In this document: positions 612 to 53,518 of the stretch, piece by piece
Layout: each line of letters starts with the position of its first letter
Numbering within the stretch: the stretch's first letter is position 1
Source of the DNA: a phage
Strand: one strand, 5' to 3'
Sequence record: PZ386967.1
Length of the DNA stretch: 64,000 nucleotides
Translations under genes and position numbers: made by a program
The notes under the pieces: generated by a model
Database searches by the model: none
Told to the model about the DNA's origin: nothing
Seen by the model: the letters and a program-made list of their open reading frames with translations, nothing else

Positions 612-660
612 TGAATTCATAGAGCGGGGCGTTCCTGTTCATTGAAAGAAGGTATACATT

Positions 661-885
661 ATGTCTGCTATATCATGTGTTGTTGATCTCACCCCATTTT
701 GCCTGAACAATATTGCTAACCCTAAATTGGTCTTGTTTAAGGATCCCTCTAATTTCTGCTGGCTGGCAAGTTGTGATACCAACAACGGGCGTCGTGCTGT
801 TTGGGAGTTTCCCGCAACTGATGAAGGCAGAATTTCTGCTATAAGAAAATTAGAACTAGAAAATTCAAGCCGAGAAATTAAATAG
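661..885 (+). CDS. Hypothetical small protein
   Basis: ORF downstream of promoter copy 1. Confidence 0.35.
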   Translation: MSAISCVVDLTPFCLNNIANPKLVLFKDPSNFCWLASCDTNNGRRAVWEFPATDEGRISAIRKLELENSSREIK

Positions 886-902
886 GCATAACTTTTATTA
901 AA

Positions 903-968
903 TCCCCAACAAACGTTGGGGATTTTTAACTTTTAGGGGTTTACTTCCTTTAAGGAATGTCCTATTAT
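903..968 (+). promoter_or_regulatory. Terminator hairpin fused to early-type promoter, repeat copy 2
   Basis: Same hairpin and TTTACT-N17-TATTAT as 546-611. Confidence 0.5.
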
Positions 969-1019
969 TCAATAACTGGCGAACGATGGGTTCACCGGGT
1001 TGAAAGGTAAGATTATATC

Positions 1020-1259
1020 ATGAAGAACAAAATGGTCGAAACTTCAGTAGAGATTGATCGCAATTGGGGATTGCTCCGCGCTAAAGGGTTCCGTCGTGTG
1101 TATGCGACCAAAGAAGTCTACGCACAGCGCCGTGACGTTATCATCAGCAAGAAAGGCAAAGAGTGGGTTGCTGAAGAAGTTGATGTCGAGACAGGCATCG
1201 TAGGAAAGGTAAAGGCCAAGGCCGTGATCCTCTTCGCTCTTCTGAAGCACATCAGTTAA
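1020..1259 (+). CDS. Hypothetical protein
   Basis: ORF with ATG preceded by purine-rich stretch; downstream of promoter copy 2. Confidence 0.4.
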   Translation: MKNKMVETSVEIDRNWGLLRAKGFRRVYATKEVYAQRRDVIISKKGKEWVAEEVDVETGIVGKVKAKAVILFALLKHIS

Positions 1260-1318
1260 TTCTATAACTTTGGGCGGGGTATGATTACCCCGTCTATTTG
1301 AAATGCAGGAACTATACC

Positions 1319-1825
1319 ATGACCGATCAACAAATTCAAGATTTATTTTACCTCGTCCATGATAAGTCCCACATCATGCGCCCCGGTACTGTTTCCCCTG
1401 CCGTCCGTGATCTGGTGCAAGAATTGCGCGAACCACAGACGACCACACTTTATCGCGGGTTGCCTAAAGAGGACGTTGCGCGTTTAGAGATGATGTTTGA
1501 ACGAGGCGACATGTTCCAGACATGGGATTCTTGCCTTAGCTTCAGTGAACTGAAGCATGTGGCCAAAAAATTTTCTAAATCGTACGGAACCCAAGCTGTT
1601 GCCCGCATTTGTTACAAACATCGAAACAGACTCCCGGAGGGGCTTAATGTCTATGGTTCTCTAGAAAAATTTGTGAACAAAGGCGATGAATCAGAAATGG
1701 ATATGCTGGACTTGGCGTCCATGGAGAAAGAATGGATATTCTGCCAGCCTCGCGTCATACCAGTTTCAAGAAAAATGGCAACAGACGGCACGATGGTTTT
1801 TACCGTATCACTTGTTACCCTATAA
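1319..1825 (+). CDS. Hypothetical protein; possible ADP-ribosyltransferase-like (R, S-x-S, E-x-E motif order)
   Basis: Start trimmed to Met after AGGAACTATACC leader; motifs LYRG, WDSCLSFS, EKEW in the order of R-S-E class ARTs such as T4 ModA/ModB; weak. Confidence 0.45.
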   Translation: MTDQQIQDLFYLVHDKSHIMRPGTVSPAVRDLVQELREPQTTTLYRGLPKEDVARLEMMFERGDMFQTWDSCLSFSELKHVAKKFSKSYGTQAVARICYKHRNRLPEGLNVYGSLEKFVNKGDESEMDMLDLASMEKEWIFCQPRVIPVSRKMATDGTMVFTVSLVTL

Positions 1826-1877
1826 ACCCACGGCGGGGTATGATTACCCCGTCTATTTGAAACCAAGAGACTATATC

Positions 1878-2255
1878 ATGAAAAAGTTAATCCTCGCTGT
1901 TGCCCTGCTGGGCGCTTCCTTTGCTGCTGTTTCCGCCCCTCCTGTCATCACCGGAGTGTCTACCAACGGTGTTTATGCTTTCAAGGCGTATGGCCAAGAC
2001 CTCGTTCTGTATAAGAACGGGAAGATGATTGAGCGCTGCGTATCAGACGACGTGAATCGTGGGATCGACAATCAGGGTAGCCCATACGTCCTGGACATCT
2101 ATTCCTGCTCCAACGGGACGAAGTCCTTTGGCGTCAAGACCTTTGGCAACGTCGCCGACGGTGGCTGGGGCTTCATGTTCGAAACCCGCAACCACCACCC
2201 GGTCAAGACCATGCAAGAAGAGTTCTTGATCTCTGTCGGGGGTGGAACATTATGA
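1878..2255 (+). CDS. Secreted protein with N-terminal signal peptide
   Basis: Start trimmed to MKKLILAVALLGASFAAVSA after AGAGACTATATC leader. Confidence 0.5.
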   Translation: MKKLILAVALLGASFAAVSAPPVITGVSTNGVYAFKAYGQDLVLYKNGKMIERCVSDDVNRGIDNQGSPYVLDIYSCSNGTKSFGVKTFGNVADGGWGFMFETRNHHPVKTMQEEFLISVGGGTL

Positions 2256-2539
2256 CGCCTGAACAACGCCGTTCCGTGAAAGTCATGGTGAAAGGTAAGA
2301 CTCAGCTGAGTTATGTCCAGTCTGCCAATGTTGTCCGCCTGATGGAAGTCAAGAACGACATCGACAACTCCCGATTCCAATCGGCACTCTACGGGCTTCT
2401 CGAGTTCGTTCTTCGCCAGGCTGATCTTGGTCCTGTCTATACTCTTGATGATCTGACCAAGCTGTTGAACACGGGCGGGGAAGGTTTCGACACTGCTCGT
2501 ATCCTGATTGACGGTGGACCTAAAGAAGACGAGGTATAA
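2252..2539 (+). CDS. Hypothetical protein
   Basis: ORF with stop/start overlap to upstream gene. Confidence 0.4.
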   Translation: MTPEQRRSVKVMVKGKTQLSYVQSANVVRLMEVKNDIDNSRFQSALYGLLEFVLRQADLGPVYTLDDLTKLLNTGGEGFDTARILIDGGPKEDEV

Positions 2540-2699
2540 TTTGGATAAAGAATTGGTTTGGGAAATTGTGAAGGGTGTCCTAGTAATAATCGCGGTGGTT
2601 TTCATCTTGGGTGGAAACTTCTTCTATTGGTTATTCCGATCCGACCAGAAACGTCGCGAACGCAAGGAGAAAGAGAGAAAGGATCGATGGATGCGCTAA
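2508..2699 (+). CDS. Small membrane protein, start uncertain
   Basis: Hydrophobic segment VKGVLVIIAVVFILGG followed by a basic tail. Confidence 0.3.
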   Translation: MTVDLKKTRYNLDKELVWEIVKGVLVIIAVVFILGGNFFYWLFRSDQKRRERKEKERKDRWMR

Positions 2700-2731
2700 C
2701 TAAGGGATAACCCTATATCCCGAGGTGTGTC

Positions 2732-3181
2732 ATGTTCCTTACATCCTTTATTGACTGGTTGAACATCATTAACGGCCTGAGGATCCCTGTTGGGAACCTC
2801 GGGCTTTCTCGTTCTTCTATGCCGCAAATCGATGCCGACAAACAAGAAGATTTTCACAAATATCTTGAAGACAACGGCGTGTCCATAGATGCTGTGCAAG
2901 TGCCCATCAAAATGCTTCGTCTCACCCAGAACGAAATCAACAAGATGAAGGTCTGGAAGATCATGAAGCAGATCAGAAATAAGAAACCTATGGGTCGAGT
3001 TTGGGTGTCTTCTGACAATTACGTTGTTGACGGTTCTCACCGATTTGTCGCTGCGTTGAACATGGACGGCAAACAGCGCATGAAGGTCTACAAAGTTGAT
3101 TTGCCAGCGATGGAATTTGTTAAACTCGCTAAACAGTTTCAGGGTGTGCGATACAGAACGGTCAGCGATACCCGTTTCTGA
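2732..3181 (+). CDS. ParB/Srx-like nuclease domain protein
   Basis: Motif VVDGSHRFVAA resembles the ParB N-terminal DGxHR signature. Confidence 0.4.
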   Translation: MFLTSFIDWLNIINGLRIPVGNLGLSRSSMPQIDADKQEDFHKYLEDNGVSIDAVQVPIKMLRLTQNEINKMKVWKIMKQIRNKKPMGRVWVSSDNYVVDGSHRFVAALNMDGKQRMKVYKVDLPAMEFVKLAKQFQGVRYRTVSDTRF

Positions 3182-3260
3182 ATACGATAGTTTATTGAAA
3201 CCCTTTACTCATCATGGTGAGCCGCCTATCATTTCATCCAATGAAATAAGGAGAATCACC

Positions 3261-3947
3261 ATGAAACGTTTAATCCTCGGGGTCGTGCTGTCTGGTCTGG
3301 CATTACCCGCCGCTGCTAAGCTGAACCCCACAGGTGATAAACTGTGGTCCGACCTTTCCTATTGTGCTGGGTTCTCCCAGGCGGTTGCCATCGACAAGTC
3401 TGGTTCCATAGAGAACTTCGCTGAACTCTGGAACACAGGCAACGTCTCCACTGCTGTCGTCAATGCCGGAATTGAGTTCAACCGTTACAAACAGGGAGCC
3501 TATAACCTCAAGGGCTACCTCAATGACGACGAATTTAACCGTGGAGGCATGGAGGCTGGCGATTTGATCATGACTGGGCGTATGGGCACCCAAGGCCGAA
3601 TGACCGTAAGACAGTGCCGTTCGCTCCCTTCTCCGGCATTACAGAAGGGTGTGCAGGTTGGTCGCCGCCACCTGAACCTCATCAACGATGGCAACCAGTG
3701 CGTCAAAGTATTCGAATACAGCGCTACGCAGACCTCTGATCGCGTCCTGAAGAAGGAATGGCGCACCCGCGCTCTTGGTCTCAGAGCCTGGCTGGTTGAG
3801 AACGATTATTACTTTGAAGACAGGGTTCAGAACGGTCTGAAAGACCTGGCCACGAATCTGAGCGTGAACCTTGATGATCCTCGCATGTCGCGCGAACTCC
3901 AGCAGACTCGTGTTGACTGCGACAATATGATGAAGGAGAACGAGTGA
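3261..3947 (+). CDS. Secreted protein with signal peptide
   Basis: Start trimmed to MKRLILGVVLSGLALPAAA after AGGAGAATCACC. Confidence 0.5.
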   Translation: MKRLILGVVLSGLALPAAAKLNPTGDKLWSDLSYCAGFSQAVAIDKSGSIENFAELWNTGNVSTAVVNAGIEFNRYKQGAYNLKGYLNDDEFNRGGMEAGDLIMTGRMGTQGRMTVRQCRSLPSPALQKGVQVGRRHLNLINDGNQCVKVFEYSATQTSDRVLKKEWRTRALGLRAWLVENDYYFEDRVQNGLKDLATNLSVNLDDPRMSRELQQTRVDCDNMMKENE

Positions 3948-4273
3948 TGAAATGTAAAATCTTGCTCTTGTTGGTACTGATAGCCGGATGTGTAAACGCC
4001 GCGCCACCGTCCAAACTGAACACATGTGTGGCATGGATGGAGACGTATCAGCAGTTCCACCCAGATGACAAAGACACATCTATCCTCCTGTCTGACTTTG
4101 AGGGAGAGCTGAAGCGCCTTGATCTGTTCAGTGTTGATCAGATAGAGAATGCGCTGGATCTTCCCATGATGCTGACTGCGGCTGATAACAGTCCACAAAC
4201 GAAGAAAGACCTGATGTATTGTCGGGGGATTGCCCAGGACTTTGTCGGATTTCAAAATAAAGTTTCGGGTTAA
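3944..4273 (+). CDS. Putative lipoprotein
   Basis: N-terminus MMKCKILLLLVLIAGC has a lipobox-like LIAGC. Confidence 0.5.
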   Translation: MMKCKILLLLVLIAGCVNAAPPSKLNTCVAWMETYQQFHPDDKDTSILLSDFEGELKRLDLFSVDQIENALDLPMMLTAADNSPQTKKDLMYCRGIAQDFVGFQNKVSG

Positions 4274-15077: not shown

Positions 15078-15692
15078 ATGACGATGACAACGTTGAAGGC
15101 CATGGCCTTGTCCGTGACCTTTACCATTGCCAGCGGGAATGTGCACGCTTCCCAAAGTACCACCCAATGTGATTATAATTTCTCCGAGCAACAACTCAAT
15201 ACACTGGCAACTGCCTACCATGTAGGCAAGACACAAGACCTTGGTTACACCCTGGCTGCAATATCCTGGCGAGAGAGCCGCGCTGGTGAAGATGTAGTGT
15301 CAATGCGATACGGCCTCAAGGCGGCCAACATGGGAGCCTTTCAGAACAAGGTGAAGACAGTTGGTGATCGCGAAGGTTGTAAGAATCGCAAGTGCTATGC
15401 CAATGTCGCCATAAAGTTGCTGACCGACCAAGAATATGCCGCGCAAGCCGCCCTCGATGAGATGCAGTTCTGGCTGACCTATCACAATCAGAATATCCGC
15501 AAATCCCTCTCCTCTTACAATGCTGGCTTCGCCCGTAATCCTGCATCGAACGCTTATGCTGCCGACGTCGTGAAGAAAGCTAAATATCTTCAGAAATGTG
15601 TGTCTTTCGAAGGCCGGACCATCTCCGAGGTAGATCCTCGGGTGATCGCCATGAACAAGCACACAATAGAGAAACTGAAGAGGACAAGATAA
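15078..15692 (+). CDS. Secreted lytic-transglycosylase-like (SLT domain) protein
   Basis: Signal peptide; AISWRESRAG (E-S catalytic motif) and YNAG motif typical of family 1 lytic transglycosylases. Confidence 0.5.
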   Translation: MTMTTLKAMALSVTFTIASGNVHASQSTTQCDYNFSEQQLNTLATAYHVGKTQDLGYTLAAISWRESRAGEDVVSMRYGLKAANMGAFQNKVKTVGDREGCKNRKCYANVAIKLLTDQEYAAQAALDEMQFWLTYHNQNIRKSLSSYNAGFARNPASNAYAADVVKKAKYLQKCVSFEGRTISEVDPRVIAMNKHTIEKLKRTR

Positions 15693-16330
15693 TGAACATC
15701 ACTCCATCTCAGGCCGGATATGAACATATCTTGGTCTTCATTGCTCTACAGGGTGCGAAGGAAGGCATCATCGTATCCGAGTACTCAGGCACGGTTCGCC
15801 TTGCCGATTATGTCGCACCAGAGGCATTTATCAAGAAGTGTATTGACGCATGGTGTCTCTATGCCCTCAGCACATACCCTGCTCCTCCTGAGGGTGAGCT
15901 GTTGTTTACTGTACCGACTCCGGCTGTTGGGGATACGGATGCCATCTTTGCCGATATGCTGGCGAAGGGGTATCTGGTGTATGACATCACCCACGATGTC
16001 TACTCTTTTACTTCGCTGAACACCGTGTTTGGATTCACCATCACATCTGAAGCCAACATCCCTGACTGGGGTATCTTGGCATGGGGTGTTGACGGCCTGG
16101 GTGCAACCTACGCATCGTCTGACGTCGGTGCAGTTCTGATTGATGAGGGTGTCACCATGGAGCAGTACCTTGCCCAGTTCCCTCAGCACAATATCACAGG
16201 CAGCGACATCATTTTGGTCCAGCCTGGCGCTATCGCTCTCCCCCGTTTGGTGGATGGATGGAATCCTCGGCTGAAGGGCATCATCGCAGGTATTCGATCC
16301 CACATTCCGATTGTGAATCCGACGCCGTAA
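15692..16330 (+). CDS. Hypothetical protein
   Basis: Start trimmed to MNITPSQ; ATGA overlap with upstream gene. Confidence 0.5.
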   Translation: MNITPSQAGYEHILVFIALQGAKEGIIVSEYSGTVRLADYVAPEAFIKKCIDAWCLYALSTYPAPPEGELLFTVPTPAVGDTDAIFADMLAKGYLVYDITHDVYSFTSLNTVFGFTITSEANIPDWGILAWGVDGLGATYASSDVGAVLIDEGVTMEQYLAQFPQHNITGSDIILVQPGAIALPRLVDGWNPRLKGIIAGIRSHIPIVNPTP

Positions 16331-16343
16331 AATAATTCAATAA

Positions 16344-16388
16344 AAGGGGCTTTTGCCCCTTTACTTCTTCAATATCCTTCCCTATACT
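16344..16388 (+). promoter_or_regulatory. Terminator hairpin plus early-type promoter TTTACT-N17-TATACT
   Basis: AGGGGC-tttt-GCCCCT hairpin then TTTACT, 17 nt, TATACT; coordinates approximate. Confidence 0.45.
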
Positions 16389-17070: not shown

Positions 17071-17145
17071 GATAAGGGGGCTGACGCTCCCTTTTGGTTT
17101 CGCTAATTAGAAGAAACCGCCGTTAATTCAATCAGGAGATATAAA

Positions 17146-20130
17146 ATGTCAAAGCCAAGTTTCCTCCAGTTCATGCAGGAAAGAGATCAGTTGGACGAAG
17201 CGTTCAACTCCGCTCCGTATGAGCTGACCATGGGTAAGAAGAACGCAGGCGATGTGTTCTTCACCTTCGTCGACGAAGATGATAAGGAATACCGCATTCA
17301 GTTCTATACTCCTCAGGGACTGGGCAAGAGCGTTCGTCAGGTTTTCATCGGCCAGAAGCGCGGCTCCGTCTATCCTGACGCCATCGCTCGCTTCAAGAAC
17401 CCAATGCGCGTTATTGCTTCCATGATCGAAGCGACCAAACAATTCATGGCGACTCCTCTGGGCAAAACTATCGATGGCTATGCTGTCAACTTCTCGAAGA
17501 AAGCGCTGGATCGCGGTATGACCCTGATTCCTAAGATCATCCGCCAGTCCGGTCTGAAGCAGAAACTGAATGTCATGGACCTGACCTACGCGCCTGTCCC
17601 TGACCGTGGTTATGTGTGGCTAGTTCGTAAGGGCAAAGATCCGGCTCAGGTATTCGACGGTCCGAAGATGCAGGGTATCACCTGGGATGATCCAGACAAG
17701 GTCGGTGACGTTCCGGTTCAGAACAATACTCCGGATGTGGGTGTGTCATCTTCTGTTGATAATTCCAACGGATGGAAATTAACTTCAAACGGGGATCAGC
17801 CCATGTTGATATGGGCTGGTAAGGAGAGAGGCCGCACGAATACGGCAAATATCGCTCCCCACTACAATGAGCCGGGCGTGTATGTTGGCGCATACATGAA
17901 TGAGAAACCTGTGCGTGGGCAAAGTGCTGATTTCATTGCTCGTCAGTTGAAATTACCACAAGTCCCTATCAGTATCCTGAATGATTTCACCACGGCGTCC
18001 ACAAAATTTTGGAAAGGTTCTCAACAGAAATCTGCGCCTGTTGTGCCGGCAGGTTCGGACAGAAATAACCCAGCCAACATTATCGGTTCTGGAACTGCTG
18101 TTATTGATGCCAAACGGCTTGGTGCTCAGGAAGTAAACGTGGAACGATTCAAAAACGGCGTTCGCATGCGTTCTCGAAACGGTGACGTCGACATCAGTAT
18201 TTCTGACCCAGACTTTTCAAATGCAGCAAGTGCGGCTGATGCTGCCACAGCCTCTGTTGTGGTCAAGAACGGGCGTTACGAAGGTGCCATCAATTCAAAG
18301 CGCAAGATTGCCCGCACCTCGAACGAGCAGGGTACTGAATGGGATATCATCGGTGTCAACGGGGAAACCCTTGTCTCTATCAAGTTGAACAAAGTGTCTA
18401 AATCCACATCAGATTCGACCGAGGGTGCAACCAGTGTTGATCAATTACGTGACAGCGGTTTCATCGCTCGTGTTCTGGGTATCATTGATACCAACGTTGG
18501 GCTGGACACTTCTATTCTTCCTGGTGAAAACATCCGTCGCGTGGGCGCTGGTCGTTACACGACGGCAGGCGGGTTGGTTATCGTTGTCAACTTCACAAAC
18601 GTCCTCGCTGGTTTCGTTCAATACTCAGTTTTCAGCGAAATTGCTGAAGAGGAGAACGTGGCCAAAGGTAGCGCCCGTGACGTCGCCAAGGCGGTAATTG
18701 CGTCCATCTTTGAGGTTGCTAAGACCCAGTACACTGGCAAATGGGAAATTAGCGCAGTGCCAACAAGCGCTCCATATCCTATCAAAGCCATTCGCCGTTC
18801 TCGGGGCTGGGGTTATGTGGAAACCGCAAACTGGACTCTGACAGTGTCCGACGCTGTCCTGAATCGTGTGAAGCCAGGGAACACTGCTCTACTGGAACTC
18901 ATCAAAGAACCTCCGCGTGGCAAGCACCCGCTGGAAATCATCCCAGAGAAGGGCGACAAGACCCTGATGCTGAAAGATCGTATCACCGGGGCCATCTATG
19001 GTTCTATCGACCTGAATGCCCAAGGCGCTGATCTGGTCAACTCTGGAACCCTGAAGATACCAAGCAACGCCATGGTGTTTGGTGAGACTGTCAACGGTAT
19101 GTCCATTCGGTGGGATGTCAATTTCCCCGAAACGGGAAAATACGCCGGTACTTCTATGATAACCAACGTGACCTATTACTACGACAAAGGTAAAGTTGCA
19201 TTCACCCCAATTGTCTCTCAGAAAGGGCGTACCCTGAACAATCCGAAGACATATGAACTTCCTTTAAACAAAGATATGGTCCAGAGTGTGATTGATGAGA
19301 TTTCATCAAAAATGGTATATCTTTCCAGAAACCTCCAACAGTTGAAAAGTCAGTCATACAACCCAAACCAGGTGTTCTTGAACGATATAACCATCACGGA
19401 TAAAGGTGAAGTGATTTGGAATGATTACAACTTGTCTGACGGCAAAGTTACACAAATTATGCTGTCCATGATAAGCGCAGAAAATAAACGCCTGGAGAAA
19501 GTAGCAAACACGCCGGATATCAATATCACATTGCCCAAGAAACAAGCTGAAGTGGTAGAATTTATAAACCGGATGATCGATGTCGATCTCACCCCTTATG
19601 TGAGAACCCCCAAAAAACGTGATGTGGTATTATTTGACTCTTCTGAATTGTCGATAAACCAACTCAACAACATAGAACGCCTGGGAAGAGAAACAGGAAA
19701 ATGGTCTCTTCAGCCAAACGGTGGTATGGGTCATGCACTACTTCTGAAAAGCACGTCGCACAATCCGAAGGACGACCTTGCGGCATACGCCGACTCCATT
19801 CGCGACAACGCACCAAAAGGTCGCGACCTGGATTGGCAGATCTATGCAAGCCGTGATGGTCAGACTCTGAACGTGGACTGGGATATCACCTTCCGCCGCA
19901 ACACAACTGAAGGGGCATATCGCGAGTTCAAAGCTCAGATTGACCGCGCCAACCAGTACCTGCAGACACTGTACCGGGATGCGAAGTCCAAGGGTTACAA
20001 CCCGACTGAACCAAACCTGATGACTCTGGATAGCGCCCAGCAGTCTGACCAGTGGGCACGAGACTACGGGGAAGGCGCATACAGCGAGTACGAGCAGTCC
20101 CTGGGTGGCAACATGCAGATTAAGATCTGA
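17146..20130 (+). CDS. Large hypothetical protein (994 aa)
   Basis: Long uninterrupted ORF; no recognisable catalytic motif. Confidence 0.6.
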   Translation: MSKPSFLQFMQERDQLDEAFNSAPYELTMGKKNAGDVFFTFVDEDDKEYRIQFYTPQGLGKSVRQVFIGQKRGSVYPDAIARFKNPMRVIASMIEATKQFMATPLGKTIDGYAVNFSKKALDRGMTLIPKIIRQSGLKQKLNVMDLTYAPVPDRGYVWLVRKGKDPAQVFDGPKMQGITWDDPDKVGDVPVQNNTPDVGVSSSVDNSNGWKLTSNGDQPMLIWAGKERGRTNTANIAPHYNEPGVYVGAYMNEKPVRGQSADFIARQLKLPQVPISILNDFTTASTKFWKGSQQKSAPVVPAGSDRNNPANIIGSGTAVIDAKRLGAQEVNVERFKNGVRMRSRNGDVDISISDPDFSNAASAADAATASVVVKNGRYEGAINSKRKIARTSNEQGTEWDIIGVNGETLVSIKLNKVSKSTSDSTEGATSVDQLRDSGFIARVLGIIDTNVGLDTSILPGENIRRVGAGRYTTAGGLVIVVNFTNVLAGFVQYSVFSEIAEEENVAKGSARDVAKAVIASIFEVAKTQYTGKWEISAVPTSAPYPIKAIRRSRGWGYVETANWTLTVSDAVLNRVKPGNTALLELIKEPPRGKHPLEIIPEKGDKTLMLKDRITGAIYGSIDLNAQGADLVNSGTLKIPSNAMVFGETVNGMSIRWDVNFPETGKYAGTSMITNVTYYYDKGKVAFTPIVSQKGRTLNNPKTYELPLNKDMVQSVIDEISSKMVYLSRNLQQLKSQSYNPNQVFLNDITITDKGEVIWNDYNLSDGKVTQIMLSMISAENKRLEKVANTPDINITLPKKQAEVVEFINRMIDVDLTPYVRTPKKRDVVLFDSSELSINQLNNIERLGRETGKWSLQPNGGMGHALLLKSTSHNPKDDLAAYADSIRDNAPKGRDLDWQIYASRDGQTLNVDWDITFRRNTTEGAYREFKAQIDRANQYLQTLYRDAKSKGYNPTEPNLMTLDSAQQSDQWARDYGEGAYSEYEQSLGGNMQIKI

Positions 20131-20154: not shown

Positions 20155-20162
20155 TATAAATA
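20155..20162 (+). promoter_or_regulatory. T4-type late promoter TATAAATA
   Basis: Exact octamer about 25 nt upstream of ATG at 20188, after a hairpin terminator; coordinates approximate. Confidence 0.45.
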
Positions 20163-20187: not shown

Positions 20188-20493
20188 ATGAAACCTTTTA
20201 TCGAATATTTTAAAGAACAAGCCGCTCAACCCCAGACCCATGCTGGTGTCCAGGGTAAGACCGTATCCATCACCAAGCAAGCTGACGGCACCCAGTGGTG
20301 TTCCGGCGCTACCGTGACCCAGATTACCCCTGACAATCAGGCGGATGTATATAACCTGGAGTTAACCAACGGCAACACTATCAAGGTGAAGCTGACCCCA
20401 GACCAGACTCACGGTATCTCCCAAGGTCAGGAAGTCGTTGCTGTTCATGACGGCTTCGAATTCTTCTTTGGCAAGTCTATCGACAAAGACTAA
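20188..20493 (+). CDS. Hypothetical late protein
   Basis: ORF with GAGGAG RBS downstream of the TATAAATA element. Confidence 0.5.
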   Translation: MKPFIEYFKEQAAQPQTHAGVQGKTVSITKQADGTQWCSGATVTQITPDNQADVYNLELTNGNTIKVKLTPDQTHGISQGQEVVAVHDGFEFFFGKSIDKD

Positions 20494-20578: not shown

Positions 20579-20932
20579 ATGGTCAATGCGAGTATTTTCA
20601 TCAACCGTGGACTGCTTGCTATAGCCCACTCTCATGCCTTGCACTTCGTTACAACATCCTATGCCAAGCACAAGGCACTCGGGGAGTTCTACGGGGAATT
20701 GGAGGGCTTGCTGGACACGTTTACCGAAGCATACATCGGTGCGGGTGGTCAGTATGTTCCATCATTCGAGAATATCAAATTGTACAACCCAGACCCTATC
20801 TCCTATATTAACAGTGTGGTGATAGACGTCGATGGCATCTACAAGCAGTGTGACTCCCACCTTCAGAGCACTCTTGACGATATCAAGACACTGTGCTACC
20901 AGACGATCTACAAACTGAAGCAGCTGTCGTAA
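20579..20932 (+). CDS. Hypothetical protein
   Basis: Start trimmed to MVNASIF. Confidence 0.4.
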   Translation: MVNASIFINRGLLAIAHSHALHFVTTSYAKHKALGEFYGELEGLLDTFTEAYIGAGGQYVPSFENIKLYNPDPISYINSVVIDVDGIYKQCDSHLQSTLDDIKTLCYQTIYKLKQLS

Positions 20933-53292: not shown

Positions 53293-53518
53293 GTATATGA
53301 GTTTCTGGTGGGCGAAGTTCTTGGTTGAACTTCAGATATCCGGCATCGTCTTCTTGATCGCCTTGATCCCAGTTGCCCGTTCGGCGTTCAAGCAATGGCG
53401 CTGCAAACACAGCACCTATCGTGAGAACCATGCTTGCCATGCTATCTGCACCCATTGTGGGAAGGATCTTGGGTTTGTGGGCACTGTCCGCAAGATGAAG
53501 AATCACAAAGAGGTGTGA
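53285..53518 (+). CDS. Small membrane protein with Cys/His cluster
   Basis: Start trimmed; TM segment then CKH..C..C..HC. Confidence 0.35.
   Translation: MGEYMSFWWAKFLVELQISGIVFLIALIPVARSAFKQWRCKHSTYRENHACHAICTHCGKDLGFVGTVRKMKNHKEV

Follow-up and report, generated by a model that had tools for sequence, protein, structure and literature searches.

The gene and its family

The 64,000-nt window of phage record PZ386967.1, to which nucleotide positions refer unless another sequence is named, contains on its plus strand an ATG-initiated open reading frame (ORF) at 17146..20130, which encodes a protein of 994 amino acid (aa) residues. This protein, its relatives, and its relationship to the internal head proteins of phage T4 are the subject of this study. 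A first-pass annotation had placed the ORF at exactly 17146-20130 and described it as the largest in the window, and both statements proved correct, with the second-largest ORF encoding a 781-aa gp46/SbcC homolog. The computed precursor is a cysteine-free protein of 109.9 kDa with a pI of 8.9; it is mildly basic overall, and its N-terminal domain (NTD) and first beta domain are basic.

The gene is preceded on the same strand by a Shine-Dalgarno sequence, AGGAGA (17134..17139), located 6 nt ahead of the ATG, and by a terminator-like hairpin (17074..17093) that separates it from the upstream ORF and is not followed by a late promoter. Scanning of the window for the T4-type late promoter TATAAATA revealed three sites, none of which was upstream of the 994-aa gene, in agreement with the first-pass annotation, which had noted no clear late promoter. 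The nearest site, a perfect match at 20155..20162 on the plus strand, serves the next gene (20188..20493) and not the 994-aa gene. A bidirectional-looking hairpin and a sigma-70-like −35/−10 pair are located at 16339-16388, and the record of the Dickeya phage LIMEstone1 annotates a terminator and a "middle promoter" before ORF084 at the matching spot. Transcription of the 994-aa gene may start at this site, include two small upstream ORFs, and continue past the hairpin at 17074-17093.

The closest record was that of Escherichia phage vB_EcoM-ZQ1 (97.5% aa identity), a member of the subfamily Aglimvirinae in the family Ackermannviridae. The phage is not, as had been supposed, T4-like in the strict sense and is related to T4 in core genes only. 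The gene was assigned to phrog_3867 (E = 0) and was found in 357 phage records, so that the product, previously regarded as an orphan, has relatives throughout the Ackermannviridae, in a large conserved family. Family members are 640-1208 aa in length, and the full-length relatives were all from ViI/CBA120-type phages, whose hosts are Salmonella, Klebsiella, Escherichia, Dickeya, Serratia, and Erwinia.

The homologs in LIMEstone1 and in the Salmonella phage Sajous1 (genus Kuttervirus) are syntenic with it, flanked on one side by the gp46/47 nuclease genes and on the other by the primase gene. They are shorter than the 994-aa protein (about 531 and 795 aa, respectively) and lack variable insert I described below; the Sajous1 homolog, gp214, also lacks the Ip9-like insert II. 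The identity between gp214 and the 994-aa protein was 74% for residues 1-290, 35% for residues 430-792, and 75% for residues 877-994. In the LIMEstone1 record (L001, 6001-7597), the homolog is represented by two overlapping ORFs, 082 and 081, both annotated as "confirmed structural protein". Because the near-identical relative Kamild carries a single 531-aa ORF at this place, the split is probably due to a sequencing frameshift in the reference record.

Homologs in purified virions

Published mass spectrometry (MS) data, obtained with whole virions of homolog-encoding phages from two genera, indicate that the homologs of the 994-aa protein are abundant virion proteins. In the LIMEstone1 virion proteome, only the tail sheath ranked above ORF81, for which 23 unique peptides gave 55% coverage, and ORF82 was represented by 4 peptides; the authors described ORF78-ORF85 as a cluster of virion proteins without functional prediction (PMC3296691). 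In CsCl-purified Sajous1 virions, gp214 was represented by 196 spectra, a number exceeded only by those for the major capsid protein and VriC (PMC10892097). The Sajous1 paper names gp214 "tail completion protein" and proposes that gp214-217 form a tail-borne "ferrojan horse" operon, and its authors saw no dependence on TonB or FeoB (PMC10892097). The GenBank label of gp214 is hypothetical. The family has thus been known as "unknown structural protein" or, without evidence, as "tail completion protein".

Domain architecture

Searches of Pfam (E ≤ 1), NCBIfam, and PDB sequences (E ≤ 10) with the 994-aa protein gave no hits. The earlier statement that the protein has no recognizable domains holds for these libraries, but profile methods revealed a series of modules. 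When 120 homologs were placed on the 994-aa query, the coverage map consisted of a conserved region (1-300), a variable insert I (approximately 300-420), a conserved core (420-780), a variable insert II (approximately 780-880), and a conserved C-terminal module (880-994). AlphaFold prediction with the family alignment yielded confident small beta-rich or alpha+beta domains at residues 206-293, 315-415, 465-735, and 890-994.

All of the following segments are encoded on the plus strand. Residues 1-18 (17146..17199), with the sequence MSKPSFLQFMQERDQLDE, are a conserved leader, predicted to be an N-terminal propeptide and to form a helix resembling the T4 capsid-targeting leaders. L16-D17-E18 (17191..17199), which aligns with I4-T5-E6 of T4 Alt, is a predicted site for a gp21-type prohead protease cutting after E18. 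Residues 19-176 (17200..17673) correspond to an alpha/beta domain of the type found at the N-terminus of Alt (Alt-N), assigned by hhalign with shuffled controls and by structural modeling and proposed to direct incorporation into the head. It is followed by an acidic linker at residues 177-205 (17674..17760), for which the predicted local distance difference test (pLDDT) score was below 50 in both models, and by a small beta-rich domain at residues 206-295 (17761..18030), conserved in about 105 of the 120 homologs and modeled with a pLDDT of 70-84. Variable insert I, at residues 296-425 (18031..18420), is present in approximately half of the close homologs and absent from Sajous1 gp214. The conserved core at residues 426-780 (18421..19485) contains several alpha+beta domains with no known fold or catalytic signature. 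Variable insert II, at residues 781-880 (19486..19785), contains an Ip9-like "internal head protein" module identified by phrog_7673 and tblastn, and residues 881-994 (19786..20127) form the conserved C-terminal module (W.ITFRRNT ... YSEYEQSLGG), recognized by profile matches.

The profile of the C-terminal module matched small metagenomic proteins of more than 55 clusters at their C-terminal ends; many of these proteins start with sequences resembling the T4 capsid-targeting sequence (CTS), such as MKTFKEFVKE. These standalone proteins had no independent PHROG annotation, and among isolated phages the module was not found outside Ackermannviridae. A weak BLAST echo raised the possibility of an internal duplication of the module, which was rejected, as the hidden Markov model (HMM) of the module found one copy in the 994-aa protein, at 893-993. 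No enzymatic or catalytic signature was found in any part of the protein.

Relationship of the N-terminal domain to T4 Alt

A profile search against 1.84 billion representative proteins returned 144 hits, which fell into two sets. Approximately 70 clusters (50% identity) matched profile positions 1-180 only, always at the extreme N-terminus. The proteins in these NTD-bearing clusters were 279-1409 aa in length and had unrelated downstream parts. The ADP-ribosyltransferase (ART) domain PF03496 was detected in three of the 64 NTD proteins scanned (P0194, P0186, and P0199), and a phmmer search with T4 Alt matched these three only, their ART domain matching Alt directly. The other bodies included an anthrax-lethal-factor-like domain and a DinI-like domain and were mostly devoid of recognized domains. 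A homolog search with P0194 retrieved only P0194 itself and P0181, and led to the contig L018 described below.

Since a homolog search with the N-terminus of Alt gave only four proteins, the Alt-N profile was built from annotated loci, namely T4 and 11 diverse annotated alt loci of Straboviridae, and was compared with an NTD profile of 70 sequences. The two profiles were aligned by hhalign with a probability of 96.2% and an E-value of 2.1e-9 over 159 columns, residues 14-176 of the query corresponding to residues 2-177 of T4 Alt. The score of this alignment was 65.3, versus 17.6 or less for the controls (a reversed template and 20 column-shuffled ones). When 405 window ORFs and 69 NTD proteins were searched with the Alt-N HMM, the top 25 matches were all NTD proteins aligned collinearly, with individual E-values that were weak. 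A structural model of the NTD, generated with three remote rows added to the alignment, consisted of a compact alpha/beta domain at residues 22-176 (pLDDT approximately 80, pTM 0.68) with a helix ahead of it (residues 6-21) and a disordered linker behind. Judging from these profile comparisons, the N-terminal region of T4 Alt and residues 14-176 of the 994-aa protein are homologs.

The absence of the catalytic domain, for which a test was made, nevertheless places the 994-aa protein outside the Alt enzyme family: no PF03496 ART domain was detected in it by Pfam at E ≤ 1, while T4 Alt scored 5.8e-36 in the same library. The likeness to Alt comprises the N-terminal segment of approximately 175 residues, including the L/I-x-E-(A/V/L)-F-(N/D) start, the occurrence of both proteins in virions of phages with gp21/gp22/gp23-type heads, and the dispensability of both in the laboratory. 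In contrast, the 994-aa protein is unrelated to Alt after residue ~177, is larger (994 versus 682 aa), and lacks a C-terminal [LI]xE site equivalent to LTE-619 of Alt. Judged from spectral counts, its homolog is apparently far more abundant than Alt, which is present in about 40 copies.

There is no head module in the window. A head module accompanies NTD genes on a metagenomic contig (L018, from Logan SRR30568138) of an uncultured phage, whose closest protease match was in Ralstonia phage RSP15. In its region 616-3968, this contig carries two tandem NTD genes, one with an ART domain and the other with an uncharacterized body, and they adjoin the genes of a T4-type head module and its neighbors, encoding gp23, a T4_CASP scaffold, an S77 protease, a T4 portal, gp19, gp18, and TerL. 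In Vibrio Ackermannviridae, each phage has two to three NTD paralogs, and in phage D528 the slot is after SbcCD.

Predicted maturation site

T4 Alt is processed by gp21 at both ends, losing 6 residues from the N-terminus (ITE-6) and 63 from the C-terminus (LTE-619) (PMC5694885); the ITE-6 cleavage was verified by MS and is also annotated in X15811. In the profile alignment, I4-T5-E6 of Alt fell column for column on L16-D17-E18 of the 994-aa protein. Among the [LI]xE sites of the protein, LDE-18 alone is shared by all 33 aligned family members, and L16 and E18 remained invariant when the Alt-like protein P0262 was included in the alignment. The more general motif [LIVMC]-x-E-[ASG]-[FLAM]-[NDTI] was present in 64 of the 70 NTD proteins, following leaders that were 4-45 residues long, with a median of 16.5. 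Moreover, Limestonevirus, Kuttervirus, and Vibrio Ackermannviridae have genes for gp21-type S77 proteases. On the basis of the alignment with ITE-6, the conservation of the motif, and the proteases of the relatives, we predict cleavage after E18, which would produce a mature protein of approximately 108 kDa starting at A19 (AFNSAPYELTMGK). No N-terminal peptides were found in the MS supplement of the Sajous1 study.

Relationship to T4-type internal head proteins

In the PHROGs search, residues 796-851 of the 994-aa protein matched phrog_7673, annotated as "internal head protein", with an E-value of 1e-9. A tblastn search with residues 776-890 matched at least 150 Straboviridae genes annotated as ip9, ipI, or "internal head protein", with 31-43% identity and E-values down to 2e-7, and the alignment extended, as judged by eye, over the full length of mature VR20 Ip9. 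In the 964-aa relative P0105, the Ip9-like module is near the C-terminus (887-945), and the match to the query ends at residue 867, short of the C-terminal module. Such a position of the Ip9-like module in some relatives indicates that the modules are shuffled.

The leader was compared with those encoded in the T4 genome, which are MKTYQEFIAE in IPII and IPIII and MKTFKEF... in IPI, and with that of VR20 Ip9 (MKTFNELFNE). The start of the 994-aa protein, MSKPSFLQFMQE, fits a loose CTS-like pattern and differs from the T4 leaders. Scanning of the window with the CTS-like leader pattern yielded two real gene starts only, those of the 994-aa gene and the gene at 20188. Two further matches, an internal GTG in the 994-aa gene and a 73-aa hydrophobic ORF at 53297..53518, were judged to be due to chance.

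In the T4 prohead core, Alt is present in about 40 copies and internal proteins (IPs) I-III in about 360 copies each, and gp21 trims small N-terminal peptides. Alt and the IPs are non-essential, and many of them are ejected with the DNA. The IPs of T-even phages have been described as a very varied, defense-countering set with only the CTS in common. The 994-aa protein resembles them in that residues 776-890, a single module, are homologous to Ip9, and in that its leader, loosely, and those of the neighboring genes conform to M-K-x-[FY]-x-[ED]-[FY]-x-x-E, the pattern seen in MKTYQEFIAE; both kinds of protein are variable, mosaic, and non-essential. It is nevertheless not a classical small IP: the IPs (IPI, IPII, IPIII, and Ip6-Ip13) are single-module proteins of 8-20 kDa, whereas the 994-aa protein is a 110-kDa protein of at least six segments with an internal Ip9-like unit and a leader that bears no more than a loose resemblance to the CTS.

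A likeness was also seen to the MuF-fused polymorphic effectors ("polyvalent proteins"), which have a conserved head-associated NTD and exchangeable C-terminal parts and are thought to be delivered to the host. The 994-aa protein differs from them in having no MuF domain (Pfam), its delivery domain being of the Alt-N type, and most bodies of the NTD family, including that of the 994-aa protein, have no recognizable toxin or enzyme domain.

Loss of the homolog in genome-reduced phages

A 50-residue C-terminal tblastn match led to a record of 121.8 kb entitled "Mutant Salmonella phage SenALZ1 clone selz_232L" (MZ375357). In this genome, the upstream DUF7270 protein continues in frame, after approximately residue 85, into residues 739-795 of the gp214 homolog, and approximately 93% of the homolog's gene is lost. 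In a second selz mutant of 122.7 kb (OL964753), only the last 32 codons of the homolog are retained. The CiPGr study reported viable genome-reduced phages that had spontaneously lost selz genes 176-178 (PMC9825161). The loss of the homolog in these mutants, which are viable on one laboratory host, argues against an essential role as a scaffold or in tail completion and matches the behavior of Alt and the IPs.

In such in-frame deletion fusions, the last 32-57 residues of the 994-aa family follow part of an upstream gene, either DUF7270 or phrog_5704 (a 91-aa protein). The fusion in MZ375357 (L015, 3755-4156) encodes a 133-aa product that matches P0196. The proteins P0196 and P0173 are such fusions. 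At least two of the fusions (those in L015/MZ375357 and OL964753) came from CRISPR-driven genome-reduced selz phages and are stored in public protein databases as if they were natural.

Neighboring genes

The 994-aa gene is part of a small cluster of virion-protein genes outside the main structural module. The upstream edge of the cluster is a DUF7270 gene (15692..16330, plus strand), whose LIMEstone1 homolog, ORF85, is a confirmed virion protein. Downstream, the gene at 20188..20493 (plus strand) encodes a 101-aa protein that starts with the CTS-like sequence MKPFIEYFKE, belongs to phrog_4048, and shows a weak TOBE-like match; its homologs are found in virions, and it is probably a small internal head protein. 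These homologs, LIMEstone1 ORF80 and Sajous1 gp215, are 189-aa virion proteins detected by MS, and the copy of the gene in this phage and ZQ1 corresponds to the N-terminal half only. In Sajous1, gp215 is followed by gp216, a small CTS-bearing gene (MKGFPDFLKE) that is absent in this phage; the gp216 group, too, includes virion proteins. The next gene of the cluster (20579..20932, plus strand) encodes a DUF5856 ferritin/Dps-like protein, and its homologs LIMEstone1 ORF78 and Sajous1 gp217 are virion proteins. Phage particles do not usually contain a Dps-like protein; this one has been interpreted as part of the "ferrojan horse" tail device and could equally be a DNA-associated internal head protein.

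Relatives of the 204-aa protein encoded at 15078-15692 are annotated as "RegB endoribonuclease" or "RNA endonuclease". Pfam gave only a sub-threshold match to an SLT lytic transglycosylase (E = 4e-4), and the N-terminus, MTMTTLKAMALSVTFTIASGNVHA, resembles a signal peptide. The RegB annotation of this protein seems doubtful.

Discussion

The abundance of the homologs in virions, the Alt-type NTD, and the Ip9-like module lead us to consider, with moderate confidence, that the 994-aa protein is an Alt-type, protease-processed internal head (ejection) protein without the ART enzyme. The same three lines of evidence favor the direction of the first-pass annotation, which had suggested an injected internal protein; we infer the location inside the head and the ejection by homology, and also infer the cleavage after E18 and any host-directed activity. 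The other suggestion of that annotation, a host-modifying enzyme, found no support, as no evidence of an enzyme was obtained and the ART domain of Alt is absent.

In the mechanism we propose, the precursor would consist of an 18-residue helical leader and the alpha/beta domain at residues 19-176 homologous to the NTD of T4 Alt, followed by the body. The N-terminal unit would bring the protein into the scaffolding core of the prohead during head assembly, where a gp21-type (S77) prohead protease would remove the leader after L16-D17-E18 to leave the mature protein of approximately 108 kDa. The mature protein would be retained in many copies in the DNA-filled head and expelled with the DNA at infection. 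The mosaic body, comprising the alpha+beta domains, the Ip9-like module, and the C-terminal module, would then act early, probably against host defenses or in host takeover. The 994-aa protein is probably like Alt and the IPs in loading and delivery; it has no ART domain and therefore does not do what Alt does. A role of the body in conflict with the host is a conjecture drawn from the mosaic inserts and the precedent of IPI.

A protein packaged into the head through its Alt-type NTD might instead stay there, for example to organize or condense DNA or to form an inner body with the ferritin/Dps-like and TOBE-like virion proteins. All of the evidence from virions and from Alt-N applies equally to such a protein, and its high abundance, its mildly basic character (pI 8.9; the NTD and the first beta domain are basic), its clustering with a Dps/ferritin-like virion protein, and its lack of an enzymatic signature would all fit. 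However, the T4 proteins that provide the precedents, those that share its N-terminal unit or carry a module of the Ip9 type, are ejected, the mosaic and fast-changing inserts suit an interface of conflict more than a housekeeping structure, and the gene is dispensable for a viable phage. We therefore regard a non-injected head protein as unlikely, though the most credible of the alternatives to an ejected one.

The assignment of gp214 to the tail or neck, as a "tail completion protein" within a tail-borne device of gp214-217 for the entry of iron or molybdate, has little probability in our assessment. No homology supporting the label was found, and the gene is dispensable. No relationship to gp3/gp15 or to other families of tail terminator or completion proteins was detected; Foldseek matches in the PDB to T4 gp34 and the Mu fiber had E-values above 0.03 and TM-scores below 0.1, and the fiber matches in BFVD had E-values above 1e-3. 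The clear homology to a tail fiber or another known structural protein that would have spoken against the first-pass annotation was thus looked for and not found, and the readings as a tail fiber and as a tail completion protein were rejected for want of any homology and on account of the dispensability of the gene.

Slightly less probable again is that the likeness to Alt-N is real but the domain has another function, such as binding host RNA polymerase, with the protein entering the virion by another route or decorating its surface: the literature examined contains no direct experiment on Alt residues 7-177, and Alt is also cut C-terminally at LTE-619, so that other regions may matter for targeting, but presence in virions is the only known property common to the ART-bearing Alt and the ART-less Ackermannviridae proteins, the domain is always at the extreme N-terminus behind a cleavable-looking leader, and NTD genes adjoin head-morphogenesis genes on L018.

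If the 994-aa protein is an ejected internal head protein, the gp214-217 cluster can be understood otherwise than as a tail-borne "ferrojan horse". In the open-access papers and preprints searched, we found no report of the link to Alt-N, the predicted cleavage site, or the embedded Ip9 module, and Alt-N was not described as a separable module in the literature examined. No description of what the heads of Ackermannviridae contain was found in the literature searched, and the 2024 review of the family does not mention internal or injected proteins. Phages of this family are widely used to detect Salmonella, E. coli O157, Klebsiella, and Dickeya and as biocontrol agents against them, and the link to Alt and Ip9 gives a concrete and testable model for the contents of their heads.

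The results also suggest that the Alt NTD is a portable head-loading unit. More tentatively, and with rather less confidence than we attach to the reading of the 994-aa protein itself, it is possible that this domain is a general, exchangeable module for head loading and ejection in phages with T4-type heads (Straboviridae, Ackermannviridae, and relatives) that tags approximately 70 clusters of injected proteins, often with two to three paralogs per genome, and that the 994-aa protein is a polyvalent injected effector combining internal-protein modules, including Ip9, against host defenses. If this is true, T4 Alt is just one of the cargoes carried by a broader delivery system, which has so far not been described as such. 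The NTD family would then represent a pool of probably injected proteins, which may decide host range with respect to defense systems, and a defined loading domain would help to package foreign proteins, as the CTS of T4 already does.

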